Below are positions 2 through 13,814 of a stretch of DNA of 13,883 bases, piece after piece. Source of the stretch: a virus; UHGV virus genome UHGV-0131300. One strand, 5' to 3'. Position numbers and translations under genes: made by a program. Position 1 is the first letter of the stretch. Each line of letters starts with the position of its first letter. The notes under the pieces are model-generated. The model saw only the letters and a list, made by a program, of their open reading frames with translations, made no database searches and was not told where the DNA came from.

Positions 2-121
2 TTCAACCGCGAGTCGAACACTCTTGCGTCGAAATCTATCAATGCCGAAGTGACAAACTCCGCGATTGAGCTGAAAGTGTTGATTGAGCAGATGCGCGAG
101 CAGATTCAGAATATCGAATAA
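2..121 (+). CDS. 3' end of a chromosomal gene (C-terminus ...LKVLIEQMREQIQNIE*); possibly yicC, by inference from the dinD-like right flank
   Basis: Open frame 2 from the window edge to TAA at 119..121, followed by an intrinsic terminator. The yicC identity is inferred from my recollection of E. coli K-12 gene order, not recognised from the sequence. Confidence 0.5.
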   Translation, partial: FNRESNTLASKSINAEVTNSAIELKVLIEQMREQIQNIE

Positions 122-158
122 GCTATCAGTAAAAATCACCAAGCAGCAAAAAACCACA

Positions 159-185
159 AAGCCCGCGAAATGTCGGGCTTTTTTG
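159..185 (+). terminator. Rho-independent terminator of the upstream chromosomal gene
   Basis: Stem aagcccg (159..165) / cgggctt (174..180), 8-nt loop, then a T-run to 184. Confidence 0.7.
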
Positions 186-228
186 TTATCATGAGCTATC
201 ATAACGACGCAATAAAGCGCACAATATG

Positions 229-281
229 CGTGTACATAGAGGTGTACATAATGACTTTCATGTACATTGCTTTATGTACAC
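229..281. promoter_or_regulatory. Cluster of four TGTACA palindromic repeats (integrase arm-type or autoregulatory sites) overlapping the int promoter
   Basis: TGTACA at 231..236, 243..248, 261..266 and 275..280, directly upstream of the int start at 310. A CATAAT -10-like hexamer sits at 247..252. Confidence 0.5.
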
Positions 282-309
282 ACCCATATTCGATATTCAG
301 GTATTCGCA

Positions 310-1569
310 ATGCCAAAACTCACAGATATGCAGATCCGCGCATGGATAAAGGCGGGAGACAGATTTGATGGCAAGGCAGACGGCAACGGCCTTTATATTT
401 GCTACCCCAAAAACTACACAGCCCCGTTCTGGCGATTCCGCTATAAGCTCGCAGGAAAGCAGCGGGCTATGGTTATAGGCTCTTACTCCGAACTGTCACT
501 ATCAAAAGCCAGAGAAACAGCAAAAGAGCTGTCAGCCAGAGTTGCTCTTGGCTATGACGTAGCAGCAGAGAAACAGGAACGAAAAGCTGAAGCACTGGCA
601 AAAATGGAGGCTGAGAAAAACGCCATGCGTGTTTCAGATCTGGCCTCCGAATACTTCGAGCGCCAGATACTTCCGAGATGGAAACATCCCGATATCCTTC
701 GCCGGAGAATTGATAAGGATATTAACCCCTGCATTGGGCATATGAAGGTAGAGGACGTTAAGCCACGCCACATTGACGACATGTTGAAAGGTATCGTTGA
801 CCGAGGAGCACCAACGATAGCAACAGATGTATTACGCTGGACACGCCGTATCTTTGACTACGGGATAAAACGCCACGCTCTGGAGATAAACCCTTGTTCA
901 GCGTTTGAAGTATCTGATGCTGGTGGTAAAGAGGTTTCCCGCGACCGTTGGCTAACTCGCGATGAGCTTATCAGGCTATTCGAGGCTATGCGCACCGCAA
1001 AAGGATTCAGCCGCCAGAACGAACTGACATTTAAGCTATTGCTGGCACTATGCGTTCGTAAGATGGAGTTATGCGCCGCACGATGGGAAGAGTTTGATTT
1101 AGATGGTGCGGTATGGCATTTGCCGGAAGAACGCAGCAAAAACGGAGACCCTATTGATATACCTCTACCTTCCCCAGCCGTTGAATGGTTGAGAGAGCTA
1201 CACACCTTTTCATGTAATAGCGCATGGGTGCTTCCAGCCAGGAAGATGCAAAACAGAATGATCCCACATATTCAGGAAAGCACTTTGCCCGTAGCACTGG
1301 CTAAGGTTCGCGCCGAAATGCCGGATGTGCCTAATTTCACGATTCACGACTTCCGACGCACCGCACGTACTCATTTAGCAGCGTTGGGTGTTGATCCTGT
1401 CGTGGCGGAACGATGCCTCAATCATCGCATTAAGGGCGTAGAGGGGATTTATAACCGCCATCAGTATTTTGATGAGCGTAAAGCAGCACTGGCACAGTGG
1501 GCTGATCTGCTGGTGGCACTGGAAAGCGGAAAAGACTACAACGTAACGCCTCTCAGAAGGGCGAACTAA
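310..1569 (+). CDS. int: Tyrosine site-specific integrase, P4-like family
   Basis: N-terminal arm-binding-like region (LTDMQIRAW...GLYICYPKNYTAPFWRFRYKLAGKQRAMVIGSY). C-terminal catalytic motifs HDFRRTARTHL (HxxR) and LNHRIKGVEGIYNRHQY (catalytic Tyr). Start moved to ATG 310 in the 226..1569 frame, because the first 28 codons overlap the repeat/promoter region. Confidence 0.9.
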   Translation: MPKLTDMQIRAWIKAGDRFDGKADGNGLYICYPKNYTAPFWRFRYKLAGKQRAMVIGSYSELSLSKARETAKELSARVALGYDVAAEKQERKAEALAKMEAEKNAMRVSDLASEYFERQILPRWKHPDILRRRIDKDINPCIGHMKVEDVKPRHIDDMLKGIVDRGAPTIATDVLRWTRRIFDYGIKRHALEINPCSAFEVSDAGGKEVSRDRWLTRDELIRLFEAMRTAKGFSRQNELTFKLLLALCVRKMELCAARWEEFDLDGAVWHLPEERSKNGDPIDIPLPSPAVEWLRELHTFSCNSAWVLPARKMQNRMIPHIQESTLPVALAKVRAEMPDVPNFTIHDFRRTARTHLAALGVDPVVAERCLNHRIKGVEGIYNRHQYFDERKAALAQWADLLVALESGKDYNVTPLRRAN

Positions 1570-1664
1570 CTGAATAGATTGAGCCTAGCTCGACGGGGCG
1601 AAAAGCGGGAAGCCTTACCGCCTGGCTCAATCACAAAATAAGGCGCAGCGTAAAAGGTGACGCA

Positions 1665-2630
1665 ATGAACGACTCTCATGAAACAACAGTGGTGCATAGA
1701 AATTTATGGCAGGAATCAGGTATTCCACCTTTGGACTACTGCACGATAGAGCGAGCATCAAAATTATTAAATTGTGAAATTGATGATATATGGCATTGGA
1801 AAGATAGACTACATATAGACTTTTATGTCTATGCTGACTTTCTTGATTTCATTGAATCTGATGCCACCATCCACTTCAAAAAAGATGCTAATTTTATAAC
1901 TGATTTATTACTTATGTACCCAGAAGAAGTAAGGTTTACATTTCCTTTTCTTATTACCAGCGCAAGCAACGAAGTTTATATCCCAGCATCTGAAAGCGGT
2001 GCTTATGAGCTATTTTATGCACATAAACCACTGACAGTTGAAGACAGCGACAATAAAAATGTTTTTGAACAAATTGGCAAAAACTCTTTTATTGTAAGAA
2101 AATCAATTGCATGTGGATTGTTGCGTGTACGCGGTAGAACAACACGACATTATCATTCACAAGAATGTGGAGAACCATATGTGCGACTTGAAGCAACATT
2201 TGATTGTGATCTATATAAATTCAAAATGCAAAGTTCCCAAATTCACCTGAGTAGCCTGTCAGATAAAAACATTTATATAACAAAGGCTGATTTAGAATAC
2301 CTTCATGACGCAAAGGTTAATGGAAGTTTTGACGCAGCTAAGAGCAAAAAACGATACGAAATGGCGGTAGAACAGGAACTAATACCTGAAATAAAAAATA
2401 GCAACCATAATGCCGAGAGACATGCTGAAAACAGGGAAAAACTTTTCAAATCTGCAATATATCTTTTGTCAAAGTATCCTGATGAATGCCGTGGCAAAAA
2501 GAAAGAAATAAGCCCTGAGAAGTGGCGGGATTGCATAGTGGCTCATAAAGACGAAATTCCACCGTTAGCAATCACAAATGAAGATGTGATTTTGAGACAC
2601 TTACGTGCTGCCGCCAACGGTAAGGGGTAG
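1665..2630 (+). CDS. Hypothetical protein, AT-rich orphan cargo gene between int and alpA
   Basis: 321-aa ORF with an SD-like aaggtg upstream and its own intrinsic terminator. Visibly AT-rich and rich in Lys/Asn/Ile/Tyr codons compared with its neighbours. No motif I can assign with confidence. Confidence 0.7.
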   Translation: MNDSHETTVVHRNLWQESGIPPLDYCTIERASKLLNCEIDDIWHWKDRLHIDFYVYADFLDFIESDATIHFKKDANFITDLLLMYPEEVRFTFPFLITSASNEVYIPASESGAYELFYAHKPLTVEDSDNKNVFEQIGKNSFIVRKSIACGLLRVRGRTTRHYHSQECGEPYVRLEATFDCDLYKFKMQSSQIHLSSLSDKNIYITKADLEYLHDAKVNGSFDAAKSKKRYEMAVEQELIPEIKNSNHNAERHAENREKLFKSAIYLLSKYPDECRGKKKEISPEKWRDCIVAHKDEIPPLAITNEDVILRHLRAAANGKG

Positions 2631-2645
2631 AGTAGCTAACTATTC

Positions 2646-2675
2646 AGGCACAGTATCATTACTGTGCCTTTTTAT
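2646..2675 (+). terminator. Rho-independent terminator after the AT-rich ORF
   Basis: aggcacagt (2646..2654) / actgtgcct (2661..2669) stem, followed by ttttta. Confidence 0.7.
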
Positions 2676-2695
2676 TGTTCATATATGTACAGATA

Positions 2696-2743
2696 CTTCC
2701 TCCCGTAACGAAGCAACAACTATCGCTAAGAGGTTACGGGAAG
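2696..2743 (+). promoter_or_regulatory. Imperfect inverted repeat upstream of alpA, overlapping the region between its SD and start codon
   Basis: cttccTcccgtaac (2696..2709) pairs with gttacgggaag (2733..2743). A TGTACA motif lies at 2686..2691. Confidence 0.4.
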
Positions 2744-2744
2744 C

Positions 2745-2948
2745 ATGAACACCGACACTATTCCTACAAAAGGCTATATCAGACGCTTCCGCCTGGCTGA
2801 ATTGCTGGGCGTTAGTGTATCCACCATCGACCGTAAAGTAAGAAACGGTTCACTACCACGTCCGGTAAAGCTGGGAGAAAAAATAACTGCGTTTGATGCG
2901 GTTGAGATTCACAACTGGCTGGCAGAACGCCGCGGGAAGGTGGCCTGA
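2745..2948 (+). CDS. alpA: AlpA-family DNA-binding regulator / excisionase-like protein
   Basis: 67 aa with the pattern FRLAELLGVSVSTIDRKVRNGSLPRPVKLGEKITAFDAVEIHNWL, typical of AlpA/Xis HTH proteins; sits immediately after the int module. Confidence 0.8.
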   Translation: MNTDTIPTKGYIRRFRLAELLGVSVSTIDRKVRNGSLPRPVKLGEKITAFDAVEIHNWLAERRGKVA

Positions 2949-3379
2949 TGGAAAAGAAAAACCGCCCATTACAGGCGGCTAATTCAGATATTCGCGTATC
3001 TGATGTTACGCCCCTGACAAAATCCCTTCAAGCACCAAAGCGCACACCGAAAAAGCATCGTGCCAGAGTCTATATGCTGCGTACTGGTATAGAGGGATGG
3101 ACAGAAAATGACATTCTTCGCTACTGCCGTCTGTCTTCTGGTCGTAACTATGCAACAGAGTTAGAACGCCAGCTTGGAATCACTCTGGAGCGTATCGACG
3201 AAAAGAATCCTGATGGTATCGGAACACACCTTCGCTACCGTTTCTCCTGCCGTGGTGATGTTCTGAAAGTGATCACTCATGTTAACCATCTTGCGAACAT
3301 AAATGATCACAACGGACTTTCTCAGCAGGAAATTGCCGACATTCTGAAACTCTACCCGAACGCGTTTAACGCCGCCTAA
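2948..3379 (+). CDS. Hypothetical protein (143 aa), basic N-terminus
   Basis: ATG overlaps the alpA stop (TGATG), indicating translational coupling. No recognisable motif. Confidence 0.6.
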   Translation: MEKKNRPLQAANSDIRVSDVTPLTKSLQAPKRTPKKHRARVYMLRTGIEGWTENDILRYCRLSSGRNYATELERQLGITLERIDEKNPDGIGTHLRYRFSCRGDVLKVITHVNHLANINDHNGLSQQEIADILKLYPNAFNAA

Positions 3380-3391
3380 CGGAGACTGAAA

Positions 3392-4225
3392 ATGAACATC
3401 GAAAAAAGCAGATTAATTTCTGAGGCCGCCCCTCATCTGAACGCCTCTCTGGGCACAATTAACGGTAATGAATTTGCCGCAATTGTCCCGGTTATTCCTG
3501 GTCATATCGGTGGGCGTGAAACCAATATTGTTAGCGCAAAAGCGTTACACAAAGCGTTGGGCGTGGGAAAAGACTTCTCTACATGGATCACTGATCGCAT
3601 CTCTGAATATGACTTCACCATTGGGCACGATTACTCAGTCCATAAAACAATTTCCCCAAATTTGGGGAAAAGCCCGAATGGCGCGGCTTACAGCAAGATA
3701 AAGCACTCTGGCAGACCCGGCAAAGACTATCTGTTAAGTGTCGGAATGGCGAAAGAACTGGCAATGATCGAACGCAATGATCAGGGTCGCGCTATCCGCC
3801 GTTATTTCATCCAGTGCGAGGAAGAATTACAGCGTACCGTGCCTGAAATCGCCGCCCGCTATCGTCGCCAGCTAAAAGCCCGTATCAGTGCCGCAAACAA
3901 CTTTAAGCCAATGTGCGATGCGCTGAATATGGCCCGTGCCGAGCTGGGTAAAACGACGCAGCAGCGCCACTACAGCAACGAGAGCAACATGATCGCCCGT
4001 ATCGTGCTGGGTGGCATGACGGCAAAGCAGTGGGCGCAGGCAAATGGCATTACTGGCGAACCACGGGACAGCATGAACGCAGCACAGCTTGAACACCTCT
4101 CCTATCTGGAAAGCACCAATATCACGCTAATTGAGCTGGGGCAGGACTACGACCAGCGCAAAGCTGAATTAATACGACTGTCTCAGCGCTGGCTGGCGAA
4201 GCGTATGAGGGTAAGCCATGCGTAA
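3392..4225 (+). CDS. Phage antirepressor-like protein (AntA/Rha-type N-terminal domain)
   Basis: GGAG SD 7 nt upstream. N-terminal segment SAKALHKALGVGKDFSTWITDRISEYDF...DYLLSVGMAKELAMIERNDQGRAIRRYFIQCEE resembles antirepressor N-domains. Confidence 0.6.
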   Translation: MNIEKSRLISEAAPHLNASLGTINGNEFAAIVPVIPGHIGGRETNIVSAKALHKALGVGKDFSTWITDRISEYDFTIGHDYSVHKTISPNLGKSPNGAAYSKIKHSGRPGKDYLLSVGMAKELAMIERNDQGRAIRRYFIQCEEELQRTVPEIAARYRRQLKARISAANNFKPMCDALNMARAELGKTTQQRHYSNESNMIARIVLGGMTAKQWAQANGITGEPRDSMNAAQLEHLSYLESTNITLIELGQDYDQRKAELIRLSQRWLAKRMRVSHA

Positions 4226-4400
4226 CCAAAACCCCCAGCCGGGAAGCCGTTACAAGGATTCTCACGGGGCTGTAGTGACCGTTGAGCGCGTCGAGCATAA
4301 CCGAGTGACCTTTTACCGCGAGGGCTATCAGTCGCCATGTGTTCAGCCTTTGGAGAGATTCGTTAATGAGTTCGTGGAGGTGCGCCGTGATACTGAATGA
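4218..4400 (+). CDS. Small hypothetical protein (60 aa)
   Basis: ATG 4218 overlaps the end of the preceding gene (stop 4223..4225). Confidence 0.5.
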   Translation: MRNQNPQPGSRYKDSHGAVVTVERVEHNRVTFYREGYQSPCVQPLERFVNEFVEVRRDTE

Positions 4401-4840
4401 ACCTGCCGCCCAGAAAGAAGCCTTTAATCTGGCTGGCCTGTTAGCAAATGTTAACCCTTACAACCTGTCAAAACCTGACATTCATCGCCGCGCCGTTGCG
4501 ACAAATGACGACATTTTAGAGGCGTTTTCTGGGCTGAGAATTGGGCTGCGAATCCTAATAAATCCTAAGTTTTTTTCGCATTTCGTGACCAGTACGCGCG
4601 AGAAAGTTTTTTCTGACAACACTACGCCAGTGGAAAATTATTCCGCTGTCTTGAGTTTTCGGAGCATTACGCGCCCGTCTGGGGAGTTTTCGGACTATGT
4701 AAAAAAGGGCAGTACCTACAGGTCAGACCACCAGCAGGAAAATCAGTGTTATAGTCCCAGTGTTGCTGCAAAATCAGCAACCGGGCGTGGAAACCCGAAC
4801 ACACTCAGGGCGACACAGACGCCGAAAGCGTCTTTTTTTG
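4401..4840 (+). ncRNA. Candidate non-coding regulatory RNA or leader region ending in an intrinsic terminator
   Basis: No credible coding signal despite an open frame. Direct repeat gagttttcgga at 4653..4663 and 4684..4694; hairpin gttgctg/cagcaac at 4762..4781; terminator gacgc-cgaaa-gcgtc plus T7 at 4818..4839. Confidence 0.35.
4818..4839 (+). terminator. Rho-independent terminator inside the non-coding region
   Basis: gacgc (4818..4822), loop cgaaa, gcgtc (4828..4832), then ttttttt (4833..4839). Confidence 0.75.
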
Positions 4841-5028
4841 TGTCCGTTCACTACGCACATCAAATCAGCGGCCTCGTCCGTACTGTATCTATGGTGGCGT
4901 TAGTGGGGCTACGTTCGCGTAGGCCGGTTTCCTTTGTGTCCGGTATTTCCACCCCTGCTAACGTCACCGCCATTTCAGAGCGTGGAAACTCAGGCGGTGA
5001 CTCCTTAAACACAAAGGAGGCTGCCATC

Positions 5029-5217
5029 ATGGCTACTACCCCTACCCAAAATCCACAATTTATCTGGTTAATCGCAGCCGTTCGCCGCGACATGCCGACA
5101 ATTACCGCCAAAATCCATCATGTTGCTGCCGAAAGCGAGCGCGAAGCACGTCAAACTCTGGCACGAGATCACGTCTGTTTCTTTGCAGGCCGCATCCGTC
5201 TGGAGGTGGCAGCATGA
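5029..5217 (+). CDS. Small protein (62 aa), first gene of the replication operon; possibly Icd-like
   Basis: Strong SD aaggagg (5014..5020) 8 nt before ATG 5029. The upstream part of the 4339..5217 frame crosses a terminator and is rejected. The Icd-like family assignment is low confidence. Confidence 0.65.
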   Translation: MATTPTQNPQFIWLIAAVRRDMPTITAKIHHVAAESEREARQTLARDHVCFFAGRIRLEVAA

Positions 5218-5411
5218 GCCGTGAACTCACCTTAGAGCAGGCCGCAGAACGCGCGCACCAGACTGAAATAATTGCCCGTCTGGTTGAAGACTTCCCCCAT
5301 CACCTTGCCGATAGCGAAGTATCCGCAATCGCCACTCCGCTAAAGCGCCTTTCCGGTGACGTTACCGCATGGCTGATTGAAGAATTGGCAGAACGGGAGG
5401 GGAAGCGATGA
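5214..5411 (+). CDS. Small hypothetical protein (65 aa)
   Basis: ATGA start/stop overlap with the preceding ORF; ggagg SD at 5202..5206. Confidence 0.6.
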   Translation: MSRELTLEQAAERAHQTEIIARLVEDFPHHLADSEVSAIATPLKRLSGDVTAWLIEELAEREGKR

Positions 5412-5587
5412 AACAGGGACTAAGCGTTAGTGAAGTAATGTGCAGAATCCAACAGGCGCAGACCGTCCTCACCATGTGGCTTCACACCATGACCACCGAC
5501 GACGGGGAAGCGCCCGATATGGTGGATGCGGTGCTGACAATCTTAGACGGGCTGGCCGATGCGCTGGCAGTGGAGAGTGACAAATGA
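5408..5587 (+). CDS. Small hypothetical protein (59 aa), absent from the supplied ORF track; paralog of the next gene
   Basis: ATGA overlap at both ends (5408 and 5584). Translation MKQGLSVSEVMCRIQQAQTVLTMWLHT... shares the C-I---AQ-VL-MWL motif with the 5584..5805 product. Confidence 0.55.
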   Translation: MKQGLSVSEVMCRIQQAQTVLTMWLHTMTTDDGEAPDMVDAVLTILDGLADALAVESDK

Positions 5588-5805
5588 GCCAGTTACAACT
5601 GATTGATGCTGCCTGCCAGATTGAACCGGCACAGGCTGTTTTATCCATGTGGCTGGAGAGCACCAACAAAGACACTAGCCCCGACCTTCCGCGTCTTATC
5701 GGTTCAATCCTCACTTTGCTGCATGGCGTCCCGGAGGCAATGGAAGAAGCCGAAAGCAAGCTGGCTGACTATGTGATGCGTGAATATCGGGAGGGCAAAG
5801 CATGA
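5584..5805 (+). CDS. Small hypothetical protein (73 aa)
   Basis: ATGA overlaps on both sides; paralogous to the 5408..5587 product. Confidence 0.6.
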   Translation: MSQLQLIDAACQIEPAQAVLSMWLESTNKDTSPDLPRLIGSILTLLHGVPEAMEEAESKLADYVMREYREGKA

Positions 5806-6428
5806 GCAATATACTGACCATTAAACCGGGAAATCCCGACCTGTTCCACGCCGAAGCCACACCGCACGGCGTCAATATCATGACCCGCAATGATGCCGGG
5901 ATGTATGAGCATGTTTGCCTTGTTCCCTATTCAGACGCGGTAACTCATCTCGATAGCGGCAGGTATGACGACATCCCTGATGAAGGATTTACCCTGCATC
6001 TGGCAGTGGCTGACGGCGGGGAGCGTGGCTGGTTCGACTTCACCGCGCAGCATAACGTCACTATGTGGCGCTGGCTGATTGCTGCGACGTTCGTTTCTGA
6101 GATGAAGCGCGAGAACGGCACCACCACGGTTACTGAGGCTGACGGCACATCATCGCAGGTGGCGATTTACTCCAATGGTAATGCGGGCATGGTGGTTTAC
6201 CCGTTTGCTGAACGGCTGGCGATGGCGAACAACATCGAGGGCGCAATGATTGAGCGCTACGGCGTTGAGCAGGGAACAGAGAACGCCATTGTGTTCTACC
6301 GCGCCATGCTGGATACGGAGCGCGGCGAGCTGACCCCGTTCGGACGTGAAACGCTGGCAGAGCTACACGATCACTTCATTGCTGATCTGGATGAAAACGG
6401 CTGGCCTGAAATGCCAGCGGCGCACTGA
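5802..6428 (+). CDS. Hypothetical protein (208 aa)
   Basis: ATGA overlap with the upstream ORF; gggagg SD. No recognisable motif. Confidence 0.65.
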   Translation: MSNILTIKPGNPDLFHAEATPHGVNIMTRNDAGMYEHVCLVPYSDAVTHLDSGRYDDIPDEGFTLHLAVADGGERGWFDFTAQHNVTMWRWLIAATFVSEMKRENGTTTVTEADGTSSQVAIYSNGNAGMVVYPFAERLAMANNIEGAMIERYGVEQGTENAIVFYRAMLDTERGELTPFGRETLAELHDHFIADLDENGWPEMPAAH

Positions 6429-6437
6429 GGGGGCGAC

Positions 6438-6779
6438 ATGATTACCAAAAACTTCCGACTGAATGCGCTGGCGAACCAGTACGCGGCGGCACTTTACAAC
6501 CACATCACGGCTATCAATGGTGGCAATTACTTCATGGTTGACGCGGCAGGCCAGCAAATCCGTGTGGAACTGGTGGGCGGTATCAGTGGCACGCGCCAAC
6601 TTATTGATGGTTACGCGCTCGAAGCACTCAAAGAGACATACCCTCAGTGGGAAAGCATCGGGATCACCATGCTGGAGAAATGCGTCAATGCTGGTGGCCT
6701 GACTGATACCGGGCGCGAGATATGGCAAAGCATGATTAATGATATGGGCGCGACCGTGGCAGGAGGCAACCATGCGTAA
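6438..6779 (+). CDS. Hypothetical protein (113 aa)
   Basis: gaggggg SD; its stop overlaps the primase start (ATGcgTAA). Confidence 0.6.
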   Translation: MITKNFRLNALANQYAAALYNHITAINGGNYFMVDAAGQQIRVELVGGISGTRQLIDGYALEALKETYPQWESIGITMLEKCVNAGGLTDTGREIWQSMINDMGATVAGGNHA

Positions 6780-9213
6780 TATCGACCTTATCCGCGAAGT
6801 GACCAGCGCCGCAGCAGGGCGCTGGCCTTATGTGCTGGCTGGCCTGTCTATCGACGTGCCTGATTCATCACGCCGTCATGCCCCCTGCCCTGCATGTGGC
6901 GGTACGGATCGCTTCCGGTTCGACGACAACGGTCGCGGTAGCTTTATCTGTAACCAATGCGGCGCGGGCGACGGCTTAGACCTGATTAAGAAGGTGAACA
7001 ACTGCGACACCACAGAGGCGGCACAGCTTGCCGCTGATGTGCTGGGTATTGATTACCGGGCAGCGCAAACCGACCCGGCGGCAGCGAGCCAGAGAAGGGA
7101 GCAACTGGAAGCTGACCGCCAGCAGCGTGAGCAGGAGCGCCAGCAACAGGCAGCAGATGACGCAGAGCAGCGAAGGGCTACGTTTGCCCATCTGTATGCC
7201 GGAATGCGCCAGAGTGCCACACAGGGCGAATCTGATTACCTGCAATCAAAAGGGCTGACCGGGTTTAACTATCCGGTTATGCCGGATGGTTCGTTATTGC
7301 TGGAGCTGGTGGACGAATCCGGCGCAGTGGCAGCAGCGCAAACCATTACACCGCAGGGAGAGAAGCGACTCCTGACAGGTTCAGCAAAGCGCGGGGCATA
7401 TCACGCCGTAAACGCGCCAGAATCGCCGCAGAGCGTTTTAATTGCCGAGGGGCTGGCGACGGCCCTTTCAGTTCACCTGATGCGCCCGGACGCGCTGGCA
7501 GTGGCAGCAATTGACGCGGGCAACCTGCTACCCGTTGCCGAAGTGATGCGCCGGATATATCCAGCCACGCAGATTATCATTGCCGCAGATAACGACCACC
7601 AGCAGGACGAACAGGCGAACACGGGCAAAGATGCCGCAGAGAAAGCCGCCTTATCCGTGGCTGGCTGGGTGGCACTGCCGCCGACAGACTACAAAGCCGA
7701 CTGGGACGACTACCGCCAGCAAAACGGGCTGGAAGTCGCTACGGCTGCGTTTAACGATTCGATGTACCAGATTCAAGGGGAAGCCGTGAAACCGCGATTG
7801 CAAGCCATTGAGGGCGGTAAATCCCGCCGTAAAGCCGATGTCGGAGATATTGCACAAATGGCAGCCAGCCAGAAAGCGCGGTTGCTTTCATCTCGATGGG
7901 ATATGTTGGCGGTTAACCCTGATAGTGGCACTGTTTACTGCTACGAATCTGGCGTATGGGTGAAGCTACCAGACAGCGAATTAGAAAGGGTTATGGTGGC
8001 AATTTTCGACGAGCACGAAGCCCACTACACCGAAAAGGGGATTAAATCGGTTGTCGCAACCATGAAGCTGCAAATACCGGTAATTGGTGAGCGGAGCGGG
8101 GATCTGATTGGTTTTGATAACGGCGTTTATGACCTCGCTACGCAGACGTTTTCCGCCCATTCGCCGGGTAACTGGCTGATGAACCACAATGGGATCACCT
8201 ACACCCCGCCAGCGCCGGGGGAAAATATTACCACCAGCGCCCCCAATTTTACCCGTTGGCTGAATCATGCAACGGCTGGCGACCATCATAAGGCCGAGCG
8301 TATCAAAGCAGCCTTGTTTATGGTGCTGGCGAAGCGTCACGACTGGCAGCTATTCATTGAGATAACTGGCGAGGGCGGTAGTGGGAAATCCGTATTCAGC
8401 AGCATAGCAACCACGCTGGCAGGTGAACACAACACCGCCAGCGGTAGCATGATGACGCTGGACACCGCACGGGGACGGGCGCAGTTCGTAGGAAAAAGCC
8501 TGATTATTATGCCTGACCAGACCCGCTATGTTGGAGAGGGTGCGGGGATTAAAGCCATTACGGGCGGCGATCCGGTAGAGATTGATGGGAAATATGAAAA
8601 GCAGTTCACAACCGTGATAAATGCCGTTGTTATGGCAACCAATAACGAGCCGATGACATTCACGGAGCGAAACGGGGGCATTGCCCGCCGCCGCGTGATA
8701 TTCCCGTTTAATAACCCGGTATCAGACGCAGACAAAGACCCGGATTTAACCGCAAAAATCAGGCGAGAAATCCCGGTGATTATCCGCCACCTGCTAACCA
8801 CCTTTGCCGACCAGAACAAAGCAAAGTCACTATTACTTGAGCAGCGCGATTCTCAGGAGGCGCTAGACGTTAAACGCGGCACAGATCCGGTTATCGATAT
8901 GTGTGCGGCACTTTTTTTCATGAACGAACCCAAAGGCATGATGATGGGCGGAGGTACATGGGCAGGCCAGCCAGAGCCTAGGACGTATCTTTATCATCTT
9001 TATCTGGCGTTTATGGAGTATCACGGTTTGGGTAAACCGCTTTCCGTCAATAAGTTTTCACGCGCCATAAAATCAGCAGCAAAAGAGTACCGAGCCAGCT
9101 ACCTGACGAGAAGCATTAACGGCAGAGCGCAAACCAACGTTGGCTATAACGAGAAGGCTGAGGAGTTCATGCCACGCGCTTACGGTGTGGAGAGCGGGCA
9201 GAGTGATGATTGA
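6772..9213 (+). CDS. DNA primase-helicase, P4 alpha-like (zinc finger, TOPRIM-like region, D5-type NTPase)
   Basis: Zinc finger CPACGG...CNQCG near the N-terminus; acidic IIIAADNDHQQDE segment; Walker A ITGEGGSGKSVF; Walker B-like SLIIMPDQ. AGGAGG SD at 6761..6766 favours ATG 6772 over the track start at 6739. Confidence 0.9.
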   Translation: MRNIDLIREVTSAAAGRWPYVLAGLSIDVPDSSRRHAPCPACGGTDRFRFDDNGRGSFICNQCGAGDGLDLIKKVNNCDTTEAAQLAADVLGIDYRAAQTDPAAASQRREQLEADRQQREQERQQQAADDAEQRRATFAHLYAGMRQSATQGESDYLQSKGLTGFNYPVMPDGSLLLELVDESGAVAAAQTITPQGEKRLLTGSAKRGAYHAVNAPESPQSVLIAEGLATALSVHLMRPDALAVAAIDAGNLLPVAEVMRRIYPATQIIIAADNDHQQDEQANTGKDAAEKAALSVAGWVALPPTDYKADWDDYRQQNGLEVATAAFNDSMYQIQGEAVKPRLQAIEGGKSRRKADVGDIAQMAASQKARLLSSRWDMLAVNPDSGTVYCYESGVWVKLPDSELERVMVAIFDEHEAHYTEKGIKSVVATMKLQIPVIGERSGDLIGFDNGVYDLATQTFSAHSPGNWLMNHNGITYTPPAPGENITTSAPNFTRWLNHATAGDHHKAERIKAALFMVLAKRHDWQLFIEITGEGGSGKSVFSSIATTLAGEHNTASGSMMTLDTARGRAQFVGKSLIIMPDQTRYVGEGAGIKAITGGDPVEIDGKYEKQFTTVINAVVMATNNEPMTFTERNGGIARRRVIFPFNNPVSDADKDPDLTAKIRREIPVIIRHLLTTFADQNKAKSLLLEQRDSQEALDVKRGTDPVIDMCAALFFMNEPKGMMMGGGTWAGQPEPRTYLYHLYLAFMEYHGLGKPLSVNKFSRAIKSAAKEYRASYLTRSINGRAQTNVGYNEKAEEFMPRAYGVESGQSDD

Positions 9214-9232
9214 AACTTTTACGGCGGCACTT

Positions 9233-9478
9233 ATCCCTACTGCCCTACTAAAAACGAGACGAGGCCAGACGTAGCAAGGCTTTAAACTAGGTAGGGATAT
9301 ATATTTTTATCCCTACTTATCCCTACATATCCCTACCAAATAAAACAGGCAGTAAAATGCCGTTGAAGTGATTTAGTAGGGATAAGTAGGGTTATGTAGG
9401 GCAACAAAATTGAATGCCTACCAGTCTGAAAGCCTTGCCATTCGTGGCCTGAGCCAGTTAGTAGGGATTGGTAGGGAT
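9233..9478. repeat. Iteron array (putative replication origin): about 10 copies of GTAGGGAT / ATCCCTAC at 10-bp phasing around an AT-rich spacer
   Basis: atccctac at 9233..9240, 9309..9316, 9319..9326, 9329..9336. gtagggat-type copies at 9291..9298, 9376..9383, 9386..9393, 9396..9403, 9461..9468, 9471..9478. Lies immediately downstream of the primase gene. Confidence 0.75.
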
Positions 9479-9530
9479 ATTACACCCCCAAAAAGATTCT
9501 ATGGGGGGTAGCTTAAAACGAAGGTGGGCA

Positions 9531-9833
9531 ATGAATACAGAAACCAGCCAGAAAATGACCTATCAGGAGCGTGAAGCATTGAAGGGGTTTACTGACAAAC
9601 GCGCATTACAGGGCGACACCCAAAGCCTGCAAATGACCTTGAGGATGATCGCCCACTGGATGAGGCAGCCAGCAGAAATTGGATTTACAGAATATGCAAC
9701 ACACTGGACGGCGGCACAGGCCGGACGTGATGACGGGAATCACTCGACCGCAGCAATGGCGGAGCAGTGGCCTTTAAGGGAAGAAATGAAAATTAGCCCC
9801 GGAGGTAGTGACTACATGAGGAAATATCTATGA
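9531..9833 (+). CDS. Hypothetical protein (100 aa)
   Basis: Start chosen at ATG 9531 (aagg SD) rather than the track start at 9468, which lies in the iteron/hairpin region. Stop overlaps the next start. Confidence 0.5.
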   Translation: MNTETSQKMTYQEREALKGFTDKRALQGDTQSLQMTLRMIAHWMRQPAEIGFTEYATHWTAAQAGRDDGNHSTAAMAEQWPLREEMKISPGGSDYMRKYL

Positions 9834-10264
9834 CAGCACAAATTTCAGCATACGGGCGGCTGGTGGCAGATCCCCAGACCCGCACCACAACGAACGGTAA
9901 CAACATGGCTATGGCGCGGCTGGCGGTGTCTCTCCCCTGTAATGCGGCAGAGGCGGGAGAGTCAACCTTCTGGCTGGGCGTTATTGCTTTTGGGAAGCAG
10001 GCCGATGCGCTGGCGAAGCACCAGAAAGGCGACCTTGTGAGCGTGGCAGGCAATATGCAACTCAACCAGTGGACAGGGCAGGACGGCGGTACACAGCAGG
10101 GGTATCAGGTAGTAGCCGACAGTGTGATCAGCGCCAGAACGGTACGCCCCGGCGGGAAGGCAGGACAGCGGGGACAGGCAACGGACGCGCTGAGACGTGC
10201 GCAGCAGCCATCCCGTGATGAATACGACCAACGCCCACCATTCGACGATGAAACGCCATTCTGA
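9830..10264 (+). CDS. Single-stranded DNA-binding protein-like (OB fold with SSB-type acidic C-terminal tip)
   Basis: N-terminal region is alignable with bacterial SSB (GRLVADPQTRTTTNGNNMAMARLAV...FWLGVIAFGKQADALAKHQKGDLVSVAGNMQLNQWTGQDG). A Gly/Gln-rich linker ends in PPFDDETPF, compared with DFDDDIPF in E. coli SSB. Confidence 0.8.
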   Translation: MTAQISAYGRLVADPQTRTTTNGNNMAMARLAVSLPCNAAEAGESTFWLGVIAFGKQADALAKHQKGDLVSVAGNMQLNQWTGQDGGTQQGYQVVADSVISARTVRPGGKAGQRGQATDALRRAQQPSRDEYDQRPPFDDETPF

Positions 10265-10274
10265 GAGGGAAGAT

Positions 10275-10916
10275 ATGAGTACGCAACCCATCATTATTGA
10301 GTTCGGCAGCTATCGCTGGCCCAGACATCTTGCAATACATGAAGCAGGTCATGCGATAGCCGCATGGTTTTTCGGCATACAGGAGGTAGAAATTGCGTTA
10401 TCGGGTAATAACCGAGTGGCAAAAACCTACCTTAGCGGCGATGTTGATGAATGTGGAGCTGTCGCGGTATGGCACGCCAACTATCCACGGAATGTGGCTG
10501 AGGTTAAGTCTTACACCCTCTCGAATGATGACACCAGGTTACGTCTGATAGACCAGGTATGCCGGGCTATGGTTATCTCTCTGGCTGGTATCGTCGCGCA
10601 ATCACGCTATACGGAGGATGATATTGACGCACTGATGGAAACGTCCGGGAAAGCAGATATGAAAAATGTTCGTGATTTATCCGAGGTATACCGGGTAGCT
10701 GGTGGGGAGGACGCCGATATACAGCGAATATCCCTTTCCCGCGCTCAGGCGCTGATTACCCTGAAATGGTGGGATGTTATCGCGCTGGCGAAAATACTGG
10801 AGAACCGTAACCATATGCCCGCCAGAAACTTCCAGCGCATTATGGGCGATATCGACAAGCCTGTACCAAAGCCTCTGACGCTGGCTGAACTGGATGAATT
10901 GGTGGGTGAAGAATGA
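10275..10916 (+). CDS. HExxH zinc metallopeptidase-like protein (FtsH/M41-like HEAGHA motif), no AAA+ domain
   Basis: Motif HLAIHEAGHAIAAW near the N-terminus matches the FtsH protease-domain signature HEAGHA. gaggg SD before ATG 10275 (track start 10197 rejected). The protein is only 213 aa. Confidence 0.65.
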   Translation: MSTQPIIIEFGSYRWPRHLAIHEAGHAIAAWFFGIQEVEIALSGNNRVAKTYLSGDVDECGAVAVWHANYPRNVAEVKSYTLSNDDTRLRLIDQVCRAMVISLAGIVAQSRYTEDDIDALMETSGKADMKNVRDLSEVYRVAGGEDADIQRISLSRAQALITLKWWDVIALAKILENRNHMPARNFQRIMGDIDKPVPKPLTLAELDELVGEE

Positions 10917-11263
10917 AGCAATACATTCTGGCAGCCTGCCTGATCTCCTCTGCACCGGCACTATCTGCTATCCATTGTGGGGGCTTTACAATACAGCCAG
11001 ATCGTTATCGGACAACGATTAACGGCGATGTGGTTCATATTATTGATGCGCAATTTTACGGCGCGCCGCGAGACTTTAGCCAGGCCGCCATAAAGTTATT
11101 GCCTGATGCCATCACCACTACCGACAGGCAATACCGCCTGGAGACGCAGGGAGGCAATGCTTCGCTGGAGTTGATGACCAGAGAGCAACCGCCACGCGTG
11201 CTTAATCGTGAGCGCTGCGATTCCGGGCTAACAGGCTTTTACTGGTACTCGTCTGTGCCGTGA
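10913..11263 (+). CDS. Small secreted protein (Sec signal peptide)
   Basis: N-terminus MKQYILAACLISSAPALSA has the positive, hydrophobic and AxA pattern of a signal peptide. ATGA overlap with the peptidase gene. Confidence 0.6.
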   Translation: MKQYILAACLISSAPALSAIHCGGFTIQPDRYRTTINGDVVHIIDAQFYGAPRDFSQAAIKLLPDAITTTDRQYRLETQGGNASLELMTREQPPRVLNRERCDSGLTGFYWYSSVP

Positions 11264-11389
11264 GGTTCGCACCGAACGCAGGCTAAAATACTAGACTGTT
11301 CTTGACAGATTTTAAACCCTCGTAGCGCTAAACCCGCGCCAGCAGAGGGCTGGAAGCCAGAGCGTGATTTAGGCCGTCCAGAATATTCA

Positions 11390-11505
11390 GGTTCGCGCCA
11401 CTGGTTCGCAGTGCGCAAAATAGTGCGCAATTTACAGTAAAATACGCATATTATTTCGTATTCAATTTGCGCACCGTTCGCAGTTAATGCGCAGTAATTC
11501 GCAGG
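11390..11505. promoter_or_regulatory. Operator-like region: multiple TGCGCA palindromes and TTCGCAG repeats around an AT-rich inverted repeat
   Basis: TGCGCA at 11411..11416, 11424..11429, 11468..11473, 11488..11493. TTCGCAG at 11405..11411, 11477..11483, 11498..11504. Inverted repeat aatacg (11441..11446) / cgtatt (11456..11461) flanks catattattt. A TTGACA sits at 11302..11307. Confidence 0.5.
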
Positions 11506-11515
11506 AGGCCAGCCA

Positions 11516-11992
11516 GTGAGAGACAGAACGCGCAGCTATACCACCGACCTGCCCCGCATAGGGTTGCCATTCCTTTCGCACATGCGTAGCAGGCTGGCGG
11601 ATGCTGAACCGGGTACGCAGCTTTATACCCAGACCGAAAGCGGAACGTTGTATACCTTCCGGCAAGCCGACAGCTACGCCATGACAATCAACGGCGTGAC
11701 GCGGGCGATTCGCACCACAACCACACAGGCCGGGTATGGCGTGCGGGAATGGTACGTTTGTCCCCACTGTATGAAACGGGTGGCGAAGCTGTATATTGGC
11801 AAAAAAGATCATCCGTATGACTTCCCGAAGCCAAAGGGGATGCGCTGGGCTACGTTTGACAGGAAGCGGGCAGAATTATCAGTTATGGAGATGGCTTACT
11901 GGCAGGCATTCAGCCCGGTAGTGGGCAGAATCACGGGCGTTATTGAGCGTAAAGCAGGAAAAGCAGCCAGAGGCATTGGCCTGACTCTATAA
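11516..11992 (+). CDS. Hypothetical protein (158 aa) with one CPHC motif
   Basis: GTG start with AGGAGG SD at 11503..11508. Contains REWYVCPHCMKRVAKLY. No family assigned. Confidence 0.6.
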   Translation: MRDRTRSYTTDLPRIGLPFLSHMRSRLADAEPGTQLYTQTESGTLYTFRQADSYAMTINGVTRAIRTTTTQAGYGVREWYVCPHCMKRVAKLYIGKKDHPYDFPKPKGMRWATFDRKRAELSVMEMAYWQAFSPVVGRITGVIERKAGKAARGIGLTL

Positions 11993-11999
11993 AAGCAAA

Positions 12000-12016
12000 A
12001 CGCCCGCACGGGGCGT
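12000..12016. terminator. GC hairpin; T-rich tail is on the minus strand (possible bidirectional or minus-strand terminator)
   Basis: acgccc (12000..12005) / gggcgt (12011..12016). The plus strand has an A-tract upstream and no T-tract downstream; the minus strand has tttgctttta after the stem. Confidence 0.4.
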
Positions 12017-12223
12017 CAGAGAACGGGATAGACTTCTGCGACAATTTGCATTCGCCGCCAATATAGCAAGTCGTCCACATCAAGCAATAAACTATCACCG
12101 GGAGGGGGAGGCCAAATCTCTGCAATCCTGAGCCTTAAGGACTGCCCGCCCCATCGTTTTTTTATACCCGCGAAAAATGAAATTTAATCCGGGCGTGTTT
12201 CATCCTTCCAGAGGGTATGACGT

Positions 12224-12409
12224 ATGACACCACGCGAAATAGCCTTATTGACCATCGCCAAACTTGAGCACGGAGGCCACCAGCTTACACAGGCAGATCA
12301 ACGGGAGATAGAACGCTCAGTTAATGCCGATATAGCCCGGCGCGACAGGTTCCGCGAAATGATGCGAGCACCTGCCTACCAGTGGAAGAAGCCAGCGCCG
12401 CGCAGGTAG
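12224..12409 (+). CDS. Small hypothetical protein (61 aa), charged and helical-looking
   Basis: gaggg SD 8 nt before ATG 12224. Confidence 0.5.
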   Translation: MTPREIALLTIAKLEHGGHQLTQADQREIERSVNADIARRDRFREMMRAPAYQWKKPAPRR

Positions 12410-12529
12410 ATACGGGATTATTCCGCATGTAACTTATGCGTATTAAGCAAATTTCCTTTATTCACCTTTACAGAATTGTGAGTGCGTCAGTATCGTTATC
12501 CTTCCGATTCGCATTTATTCAGGATTTGC

Positions 12530-13072
12530 ATGTACCAGCTAAAGATAACCATCCGAGACAGCAAACCACCTATATGGCGGCGTGTGCTGGTTCCAGAGCA
12601 AATCCCCTTTAGTAAACTTCATGCCGTGATCCAGTTGGCTTTTGGCTGGAATGACGAACACCTGTATATGTTCGAGAAAGGGCGTAAAGGTGATCCCGGT
12701 AGCGAGTATCGCGTATGGGGTGAGGATGAAAGCATGGGTAATGCGGCAATCACACCACTATGGGCAGCGCTCCAGAATGATGGTGACAAGCTGGTTTACA
12801 CGTATGACTTTGGCGACTGGTGGGATTGCGTCATTGTGCTGGAGAAGCAAACACACGATACGAGCAATCAGCCCATTAGCTGCCTGCGTGGGAAAGGCAC
12901 CACCCCGGTGGAAAACTCAGGCGGCTTGCATGGTTACAATGAATTGCTATTACAGGCCAGAGAGTCTGATAATCCTGAGCAGGCCGAGATCCACAATTTC
13001 CTGATGCTGGATATTGAGCGCCGGGTTTACGACCTGAGCAGCATCAACGACAGATTGCAGGCTCTTAACTGA
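12530..13072 (+). CDS. pRiA4b ORF-3-like domain protein (180 aa)
   Basis: N-terminus MYQLKITIRDSKPPIWRRVLVPEQIPFSKLHAVIQLAFGWNDEHLYMF matches the characteristic start of the plasmid pRiA4b ORF-3-like family. Start moved from track GTG 12482 to ATG 12530, which has an agga SD. Confidence 0.65.
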   Translation: MYQLKITIRDSKPPIWRRVLVPEQIPFSKLHAVIQLAFGWNDEHLYMFEKGRKGDPGSEYRVWGEDESMGNAAITPLWAALQNDGDKLVYTYDFGDWWDCVIVLEKQTHDTSNQPISCLRGKGTTPVENSGGLHGYNELLLQARESDNPEQAEIHNFLMLDIERRVYDLSSINDRLQALN

Positions 13073-13424
13073 CCCGCATATATTCGCCTGATATTGCGTT
13101 ATCAGCGCCGCCAGTATCGCGCATAACAGCGCACTGACCGGGCAAACCGTAGCGCACGACCGTTGCGTTAGTCTCACCGCCGCGCCGTATCTGGCGCGAT
13201 TCATACACTGTCACCCGCTCAAGCAGTCCACCAGCAACCATGCTTTCCAGTGTGCGCCGGGTTGATTCGATCTGGTGGCGCTTATCGAACGACACCATGC
13301 CATGAAGCAGGTAGGCCACACCCGACACATCGAACGGCGGCGCACCAATCTCACCAGTCACCCATTCGAGGTTATCCGGTTCAAAGTAGCTAAGTATCTC
13401 TTTTTTGCGGCTGGTCATTCTCAT
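13065..13424 (-). CDS. Hypothetical protein (119 aa), convergent with and overlapping the 3' end of the preceding gene
   Basis: Minus-strand ORF MRMTSRKKEILSYFEPDNLEW...; its 3' end overlaps 12530..13072 by 8 bp. Last gene inside the element before the right-end repeats. Confidence 0.55.
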   Translation of the reverse strand: MRMTSRKKEILSYFEPDNLEWVTGEIGAPPFDVSGVAYLLHGMVSFDKRHQIESTRRTLESMVAGGLLERVTVYESRQIRRGGETNATVVRYGLPGQCAVMRDTGGADNAISGEYMRVS

Positions 13425-13544
13425 GGCTGGCAGGTTCCTTATTGTGGGATAGCGGTATCATACAATAAGGCGCAAAAGATAAGAGGCCAGAACAGCAAGC
13501 ATGAGAGCATAAAATGAGCAGCCAAAGACAGCACCTCAAAATAC

Positions 13545-13564
13545 CGTGTACACAAGGGTGTACC
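13545..13564. promoter_or_regulatory. Right-end copy of the TGTACA arm-type repeat pair
   Basis: cgtgtacacaagggtgtac (13545..13563) matches cgtgtacatagaggtgtac (229..247) at 16 of 19 positions, in the same orientation. Confidence 0.5.
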
Positions 13565-13673
13565 TACTGAGAAAACGCATTACAAGAAATACAGCAACCA
13601 CGGGAGTTTAAAGCCACTACTCAATAAACAGATTCAACTCGTAACGCCAATTCTTACTTTTCAGCCTTCACAA

Positions 13674-13794: not shown

Positions 13795-13814
13795 AACTGT
13801 ATATAAATACAGTT
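13795..13814. promoter_or_regulatory. LexA (SOS) box aaCTGTatataaatACAGtt
   Basis: Perfect CTGT-N8-ACAG palindrome with a TA-rich centre at 13797..13812, about 45 bp upstream of an ORF start. Confidence 0.75.

Follow-up and report, generated by a model that had tools for sequence, protein, structure and literature searches.

Repeated GTGTAC-type sites at the ends of a yicC-borne island in Escherichia coli as predicted arm-type sites of its P4-like integrase

The integrase of phage lambda is heterobivalent: it acts on an attP of ~240-250 bp that carries repeated non-core sites on both arms, and adjacent pairs of these sites, spaced about one helical turn apart, bridge arm and core. The integrative island analyzed here resembles lambda in its heterobivalent integrase, in the presence of sites on both arms (P1, P2 and P'1-P'3 in lambda) and in their arrangement as adjacent pairs. 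It differs from lambda in the family of the integrase N-domain, in a left arm where an inverted pair stands beside a direct pair, and in an int gene transcribed away from attL from its own (putative) promoter, not from pI/pL.

Closer parallels are found among integrases that act next to their own genes. In KplE1, IntS is subject to negative autoregulation and attL overlaps the int promoter (PMC2951348). As in the KplE1/HK620 IntS-TorI system, int here adjoins attL and points inward, with P' sites located between the core and the int start, and the intergenic length of 188 nt is of the same order as the 208-228 nt average given for predicted autoregulated cases (PMC2951348); in contrast to that system, the candidate RDF here is of the AlpA type and the int promoter is a putative one. 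The same source credits Piazzolla et al. 2006 with the observation that P4 Int binds near its own transcription start and represses int. P4 and the island share the integrase family and its domain order, the location of int beside the attachment site, followed by an AlpA/Vis-type gene, the presence of P4-type immunity RNAs and a P4-family primase. They differ in their target, which here is the 3' end of a protein gene, yicC, and not a tRNA gene, and in their sites, which here are GTGTAC-based, comprise two direct and two inverted copies on the left arm and are predicted from sequence. The arm-binding domains of the HPI and HAI7 integrases (3JTZ and 3JU0, with 3RMP as the DNA complex) have the same three-stranded sheet and helix as that of this integrase, but their identity to it is just 28-31%. 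Lastly, reference PICIs integrated into yicC and showing drifting identity blocks are mentioned in a preprint (bioRxiv 10.1101/2022.07.18.500453) that does not discuss arm sites (the word 'arm' occurs 0 times); the int-alpA-primase gene order of the present island and its iterons after the primase are in keeping with such elements.

An island inserted at the yicC stop codon

The window, that is, the whole stretch of 13,883 nucleotides of UHGV virus genome UHGV-0131300 that was analyzed, is E. coli chromosome, with 100% identity to eight complete genomes. Comparison with the K-12 empty site delimits within it a 13.5-kb island (122-13637; 13,516 bp) located between yicC and dinD and inserted at the yicC stop codon, with its left junction directly after that codon (119-121) and host DNA again from position 13638. 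The attL common core, AATATCGAATAA (110..121, + strand), comprises the last yicC codons and the stop, and AACATCGAATAA is found at both junctions in relatives. At the right end, a remnant of the attR core region, CAGATTCAA (13629..13637, + strand), is followed by host sequence resuming at 13638 as CTCGTAACG. Within the window, identity between attL and attR at the junction is limited to the dinucleotide AA (2 nt). Three related E. coli islands present attR as aaaCAGATTCA-ACATCGAATAA-ctcgtaacg and attL as CAGAAYATCGARTAA-gctatcag, and their junctions establish the last yicC codons, AAYATCGARTAA, as a common core of 12 nt.

Alignment of the right ends revealed that the attR of the window does not contain the 10 nt CATCGAATAA, which are present as common core in the closest relatives (13625-13640 in the window versus 15393-15411 in L082 and 12462-12480 in L084), and that these missing 10 nt fall between two AAC repeats. 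UMNK88, another E. coli island, has a longer core and carries CAGATTCAAGAATAA at attR. In more distant elements (Aeromonas L054, Zobellella L032, Erwinia L045 and Pantoea L058), the right junction repeats as much as 24 nt from the 3' end of yicC. A drifting identity block in yicC PICIs had been noted earlier (bioRxiv 10.1101/2022.07.18.500453). From its sequence, an island with a shortened attR core may be unable to excise precisely.

A tRNA gene as integration target was ruled out, as there is none in the window; the target is yicC. Two related loci document how this target can be occupied. At positions 20714-21245 of L045, one island's right end runs into a second island, of which the left arm and a decayed int pseudogene are present, and at positions 9690-9800 of L041 an attP-like junction, consisting of right arm, core and left arm, lies upstream of int. 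These arrangements indicate that several islands can stack at the yicC site. On the opposite flank of the window island, the palindrome CTGTATATAAATACAG (13798-13813) upstream of dinD is the LexA-box-like element expected of an SOS gene; it lies in host DNA and is unrelated to the island.

Annotation and Pfam searches identified in the island, besides the tyrosine integrase gene (310-1569), a 321-aa ORF next to int (1665-2630) in which Pfam recognized no domain and which varies between islands, an AlpA-family gene (2745-2948), AntA-like and Icd-like genes and a P4-family primase-helicase gene. Rfam matches to c4-a1b1, isrK and C4 antisense RNA (P4-type immunity) at 4749-4974, inside or beside the Icd-like gene, point to a P4-like immunity module, even though no sid/delta/psu-type capsid genes were recognized in the island. 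The location of int beside att, the alpA-type regulator, the primase-helicase with iterons, the 13,516-bp length and the lack of a full set of virion genes fit a putative phage satellite of the P4-like/PICI type. The region immediately 3' of the int stop codon (1578-1644) matches the Rfam int-alpA RNA motif (RF02996, 60.6 bits), which is thus located upstream of the 321-aa ORF rather than immediately ahead of alpA. The primase-helicase gene is immediately followed by iteron-like repeats of TATCCCTAC and GTAGGGATA in inverted blocks (9262-9480), with 80-nt arms that are 73% complementary; this array is probably the replication origin of the island. A TGCGCA-N6-TGCGCA palindrome (11411-11428), with more TGCGCA/TTCGCA copies nearby (11467-11504), precedes an ORF at 11516; palindromes of the same form occur at comparable positions in L011, L012, L019, L032 and L054, and the region looks like the operator of a putative regulator.

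Repeated oriented sites on both arms

The int gene (310..1569, + strand) encodes a 419-aa tyrosine integrase with Arm-DNA-bind_3, Phage_int_M and Phage_integrase domains, as supported by Pfam, PDB sequence matches and RefSeq annotation, so that its core-binding and catalytic domains are accompanied by an arm-binding domain at the N terminus. The match to Pfam Arm-DNA-bind_3 covers residues 4-90 (E=6.9e-20), and residues 3-91 align to the arm-type binding domains 3JTZ and 3JU0 with E values of 1e-6 to 2e-6 and 28-31% identity. A single-sequence structural model of the integrase (mean pLDDT 72.6) yielded 3JTZ, 3JU0 and 3RMP as its best fold matches, with probability 1.00 and TM scores of 0.58-0.70 normalized to the target.

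Six exact copies of TGTACA are present in the window (231-236, 243-248, 261-266, 275-280, 2686-2691 and 13547-13552). The four copies that the preliminary description reported as packed upstream of int (231, 243, 261 and 275) were recovered, and their clustering is beyond chance: with four copies observed, none of 3000 first-order Markov simulations placed three or more TGTACA within 50 bp. Enrichment across the whole window is a different matter, since the bare hexamer is only modestly in excess (6 seen versus 2.58 expected; 6 of 200 shuffles gave at least as many). The matching pair proposed for the right end held for one member, an exact TGTACA at 13547, but not for the other, which at 13559 reads TGTACC, a one-base variant; the segment 13545-13570 is a direct repeat of 229-254 with 81% identity (repeat family D9). 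As TGTACA is palindromic, the orientation of each site must be read from its flanks, and the real unit proved to be an oriented site of ~13 nt, GTGTAC followed by NNA. The oriented extension GTGTACNNA occurs exactly five times (230+, 242+, 273-, 13546+ and 13558+), always in the two island ends, versus 0.82 expected, and 0 of 200 shuffles reach five. These counts identify the palindromic hexamer as a sub-motif of a longer asymmetric site.

On the left arm, the sites P'1-P'4 lie 109-160 nt after the core. P'1 (GTGTACATAGAGG, 230..242, + strand) and P'2 (GTGTACATAATGA, 242..254, + strand) form a direct pair with a 12-nt offset, and are followed by two inverted sites, P'3 (ATGTACATGAAAG in minus-strand reading, 255..267, - strand) and, 14 nt from it, P'4 (GTGTACATAAAGC in minus-strand reading, 269..281, - strand). 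P'3 is the least conserved of these sites, being degenerate or lost in many relatives. The right arm carries a direct pair, P1 (GTGTACACAAGGG, 13546..13558, + strand) and, 12 nt after it, P2 (GTGTACCTACTGA, 13558..13570, + strand), which start, respectively, 83 and 71 nt before CAGATTCA, with which the yicC-like sequence next to the core begins at the right end. Both arms of attP thus hold repeated sites, tens of bp from the crossover, and GTGTACNNA is unlike the core AAYATCGARTAA.

An integrase scan restricted to one genome per species returned 79 loci, about 45 of which have int beside the yicC stop codon in the same layout, with integrase identities of 61-92%. Their hosts include Enterobacterales, Aeromonas, Tolumonas, Zobellella, Vogesella, Azonexus and Propionivibrio, among others. 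Across 48 aligned yicC-int spacers, the blocks conserved above 90% outside the yicC end and the terminator are gTGTAC (P'1), ggTGTACcca (P'2), ggGTACAc (P'4) and AAAgCgCa, with fixed spacing and orientation for P'1, P'2 and P'4. In nearly all of these loci the direct pair precedes the start of int by 59-80 nt (mostly 73-80). At the other end, the direct pair lies ~82 nt before CAGATYCA in eight of the nine elements with a readable right end, and is shifted by ~4 nt in the ninth, L058. Elements with related integrases thus keep their arm sites in place, and the specificity of the sites tracks the integrase, with the exceptions given below.

We read these repeats as predicted arm-type sites at which the P4-like tyrosine integrase encoded by the island would bind through its N-terminal domain, and assign to this reading a probability of roughly 80%. 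The integrase was one of two binders put forward in the preliminary description, and this part of the proposal gains support from the location of sites on both arms outside the core, from the P4-type arm-binding domain of Int, from site positions kept in ~48 elements and from a variable half-site that co-varies with the Int hairpin, as detailed below. In every in silico respect the sites fit the arm-type definition for a P4-like heterobivalent integrase, a kind of site already known; because the arrangement is in kind that of textbook lambda and P4, a specialist would regard it as expected rather than surprising. What apparently goes beyond the textbook is the repeated co-switching of hairpin and site, together with the chimeric, core-truncated state of this island.

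From what is known of the workings of this integrase family, joining of the right end to the left end in a circular form of the island would generate an attP of ~250 bp, in which the direct pair P1 and P2 would be followed by ~60 nt, by the yicC-like core ending in the stop codon, by ~108 nt containing the terminator and a conserved block, by P'1-P'4 and by int. The N-domain of Int would then occupy the arm sites and its C-terminal domains the core, so that Int would bridge arms and core in an intasome for integration into, or excision from, the yicC 3' end. The analysis defines the ends of these satellite-type islands, a widespread family present in many Gammaproteobacteria and some Betaproteobacteria, along with the layout of their recombination sites, and yields concrete candidate sites for Int binding and int regulation.

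Site classes and the integrase hairpin

The 3' half of the site varies between elements, but it is identical in all copies within one element and in both orientations. The window site follows the form GTGTAC-ATARAG; the other classes end in ACCTRG, CCAAAG or CCAW, and a variant, GTGCACCCCT, is found in Azonexus. Each class is associated with a particular Int hairpin: C[YF]P..Y..PFW with ATARAG, SYRENYQTPVW with ACCTRG, LR[YFH]R..D..P[ST]W with CCAAAG and C[YH]R..F..PKW with CCAW. The hairpin is encoded by int codons 28-43 (LYICYPKNYTAPFWRF; 391..438, + strand), a hypervariable stretch that co-varies with site class and runs from strand beta1 through the loop into the first part of beta2; in the single-sequence model of the arm-binding domain, residues ~30-42 span the loop together with the end of beta1 and the beginning of beta2. 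Within residues 28-43, the window has CYPKNYTAPFW and L084 has RYREADKTPTW, and the respective sites are GTGTACATARAG and GTGTACCCAAAG.

Class switches take place between integrases with near-identical catalytic domains. Over residues 100-415, identity reaches 98% between the window (ATA) and L084 (CCAAA), 100% between L010 (ATA) and L020 (CCAAA), 98% between L082 (ACCT) and L083 (CCAAA) and 96% between L015 and L021, and the nearest neighbor belongs to another site class for 23 of 42 elements. This pattern argues that the association between hairpin and site is not simply a clade effect. In class-switched pairs, DNA divergence peaks at the arm sites and at the hairpin codons, and L032, L045, L054, L058, L083/L084 and UMNK88 all have right-arm sites of their own class. 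The hairpin codons lie ~200 bp from the left-arm sites and, in the comparison of the window with L084, a single divergent tract (~205-900) spans both; given this proximity, linkage within a recombination tract contributes to the association, and the stronger argument for function is that all copies agree with one another, even those at the opposite end of the island. Strict class matching is not universal, as illustrated by the right arms of the window and L082 and by the decayed tandem remnant in L045, which combines an ACCT-type hairpin with CCAAA-type sites. On these comparisons, site specificity appears to reside partly in the site 3' half and in Int residues ~30-42.

A broader proposition, which we advance tentatively and rate as somewhat less than even odds, is that yicC-site islands with near-identical Int catalytic domains may fall into at least 4-5 orthogonal arm-recognition classes, with a cassette of the ~12-residue beta-hairpin and the site 3' half having been swapped repeatedly. 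If true, diversification of arm classes would keep the integrase of one island from excising or repressing another where islands compete or stand in tandem at one attB, and the hairpin/site pairs would amount to a natural recognition code for re-targeting arm binding. The correspondence between hairpin and class provides a ready design for specificity swaps in P4-like integrases, for which a crystal structure of the domain with DNA exists (3RMP).

The window and L082 depart from this correspondence in that their right arms differ in class from their own left arms. In both islands, the right arm is that of the CCAAA-type islands L083 and L084 (GTGTACACAAGGG, GTGTACCTACTGA). UMNK88 (L086 36293-36317) carries instead the native ATA-class right arm, GTGTACATAAGGG and GTGTACATAATCA. 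The segment containing the ATA-class left arm and hairpin (205-460) is present in ~284 complete E. coli genomes, about 5%, the UMNK88-type right arm in ~229-255 and the window-type right arm in 65; these counts, obtained separately for each segment, suggest that the combination seen in the window is a minority chimera. The window island therefore looks like a recombinant that joins an ATA-class Int and left arm to the right arm of another class. Under the cassette-swap proposition, this mismatched right arm, together with an attR core shorter by 10 nt, implies that the island may no longer excise.

The int promoter interval and candidate binders

An intrinsic terminator borne by the island (158..186, + strand) was detected behind yicC by terminator scan, with its stem and T-run kept in all aligned relatives. 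As it shields int from read-through, int needs a promoter of its own within 187-309. The first part of this interval, between the terminator and the first arm site (187..229, + strand), is a conserved block with TTATCAtgagCTATCATAAcgacgcaatAAAGCGCAcaata as its alignment consensus; the block (TTATCAtgggCTATCATAAagacgcaacAAAGCGCA) is strongly conserved across Enterobacterales, and may bind an accessory factor or an RDF and/or act as a weak promoter, with AlpA, IHF and RNA polymerase as candidate binders. A standard scan found no match to a sigma-70 promoter between 187 and 309. A relaxed scan returned two weak candidates. TGTACA(261)-18-CATATT(285-290) scores 8 of 12 and overlaps P'3 and P'4; CTATCA(196)-18-CACAAT(220) scores 7 of 12, recurs in position in relatives and would place the transcription start at about P'1. 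With either candidate, Int bound to 230-281 would sit on the promoter or just downstream of it. Since the left-arm sites take up 230-281 of the sole interval open to an int promoter, in which promoter matches attain just 7-8 of 12, bound Int would most likely lower int transcription. Negative autoregulation of int, also proposed in the preliminary description, is thus plausible from the geometry and by analogy with KplE1 IntS and P4 Int.

The same overlap raises the question of whether the left-arm repeats could be mainly an int operator or promoter, with TGTACA acting as a -35-like hexamer accompanied by half-sites, without any role in recombination and with the right-end pair being unrelated. 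The 8 of 12 score of TGTACA(261)-18-CATATT(285) is in line with this possibility, as are the recurrence of P'3 or P'4 at a -35-like position in relatives and the short distance, 29 nt, that separates the end of P'4 from the int ATG (310). We nonetheless consider it distinctly unlikely, because a purely promoter-local operator does not explain a pair at the far end of the island that has the same 12-nt spacing, the site class of its own element and a fixed distance from the core in most of the nine elements.

AlpA, an excisionase-like helix-turn-helix protein, was the second binder named in the preliminary description, and in this capacity it would act on the repeats as a directionality factor or activator in place of the integrase. 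An AlpA-family gene is indeed present (2745-2948), directionality factors do occupy repeated sites within att arms, and KplE1 has an RDF, TorI, that represses int (PMC2951348). The comparison of the window with L084 and L082 speaks against AlpA as the binder: its identity to the window protein reaches 98.5% in L084 and 95.5% in L082, and yet the left-arm classes of both differ from that of the window. The site sequence does not follow AlpA, the sites are present on both arms, in both orientations, and follow the Int hairpin, and the sole TGTACA beside alpA is not conserved. Binding of the repeats by AlpA is thus very unlikely, and this half of the earlier proposal is not supported.

That the sites are bound by a host factor, or by some other protein of the island such as the product of the 321-aa ORF (1665-2630), is most improbable. 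This ORF is attractive in that it lies beside int, is variable between islands and has no recognized domain. Its homologs, however, do not track site class, being absent from the other ATA-class elements (L010, L015 and L060) and present in partial form in ACCT- and CCAAA-class elements, and on these grounds the ORF was rejected as the binder. A host factor is unlikely given the coexistence of three site classes in E. coli at one locus. Finally, the chance that the repeat cluster is a fortuitous or compositional feature is negligible, for although the window-wide excess of the bare hexamer is merely ~2.3-fold, the clustering arose in no simulation, GTGTACNNA is found 5 times versus 0.82 expected and the sites are conserved across genera.

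The assignment of the repeats to the integrase leaves aside the TGTACA copy of the alpA leader, which had previously been grouped with them. The hexamer is present at 2686..2691, between a terminator (2646-2669) and alpA, but its membership in the family is not supported, since it is not conserved in the closest relatives: the equivalent position reads TATACA in L084 and has no counterpart in L082, L083 and L004, and the copy does not extend to GTGTACNNA. It was hence rejected as a member of the repeat family and, with ~2.6 hexamers expected by chance, it is probably a chance hit.

The alpA leader also contains a hairpin (2701-2741; CCCGTAAC...GTTACGGG) whose 3' arm lies directly after the Shine-Dalgarno sequence, and which is possibly a translational control element. 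In single-sequence folds, this hairpin is the minimum-free-energy structure in all 17 of the 17 related leaders, and its stems differ between leaders yet pair, as in CTCGTAAC/GTTACGAG, CCCCATAAC/GTTATGGGG and CCCCTAA/TTAGGGG.
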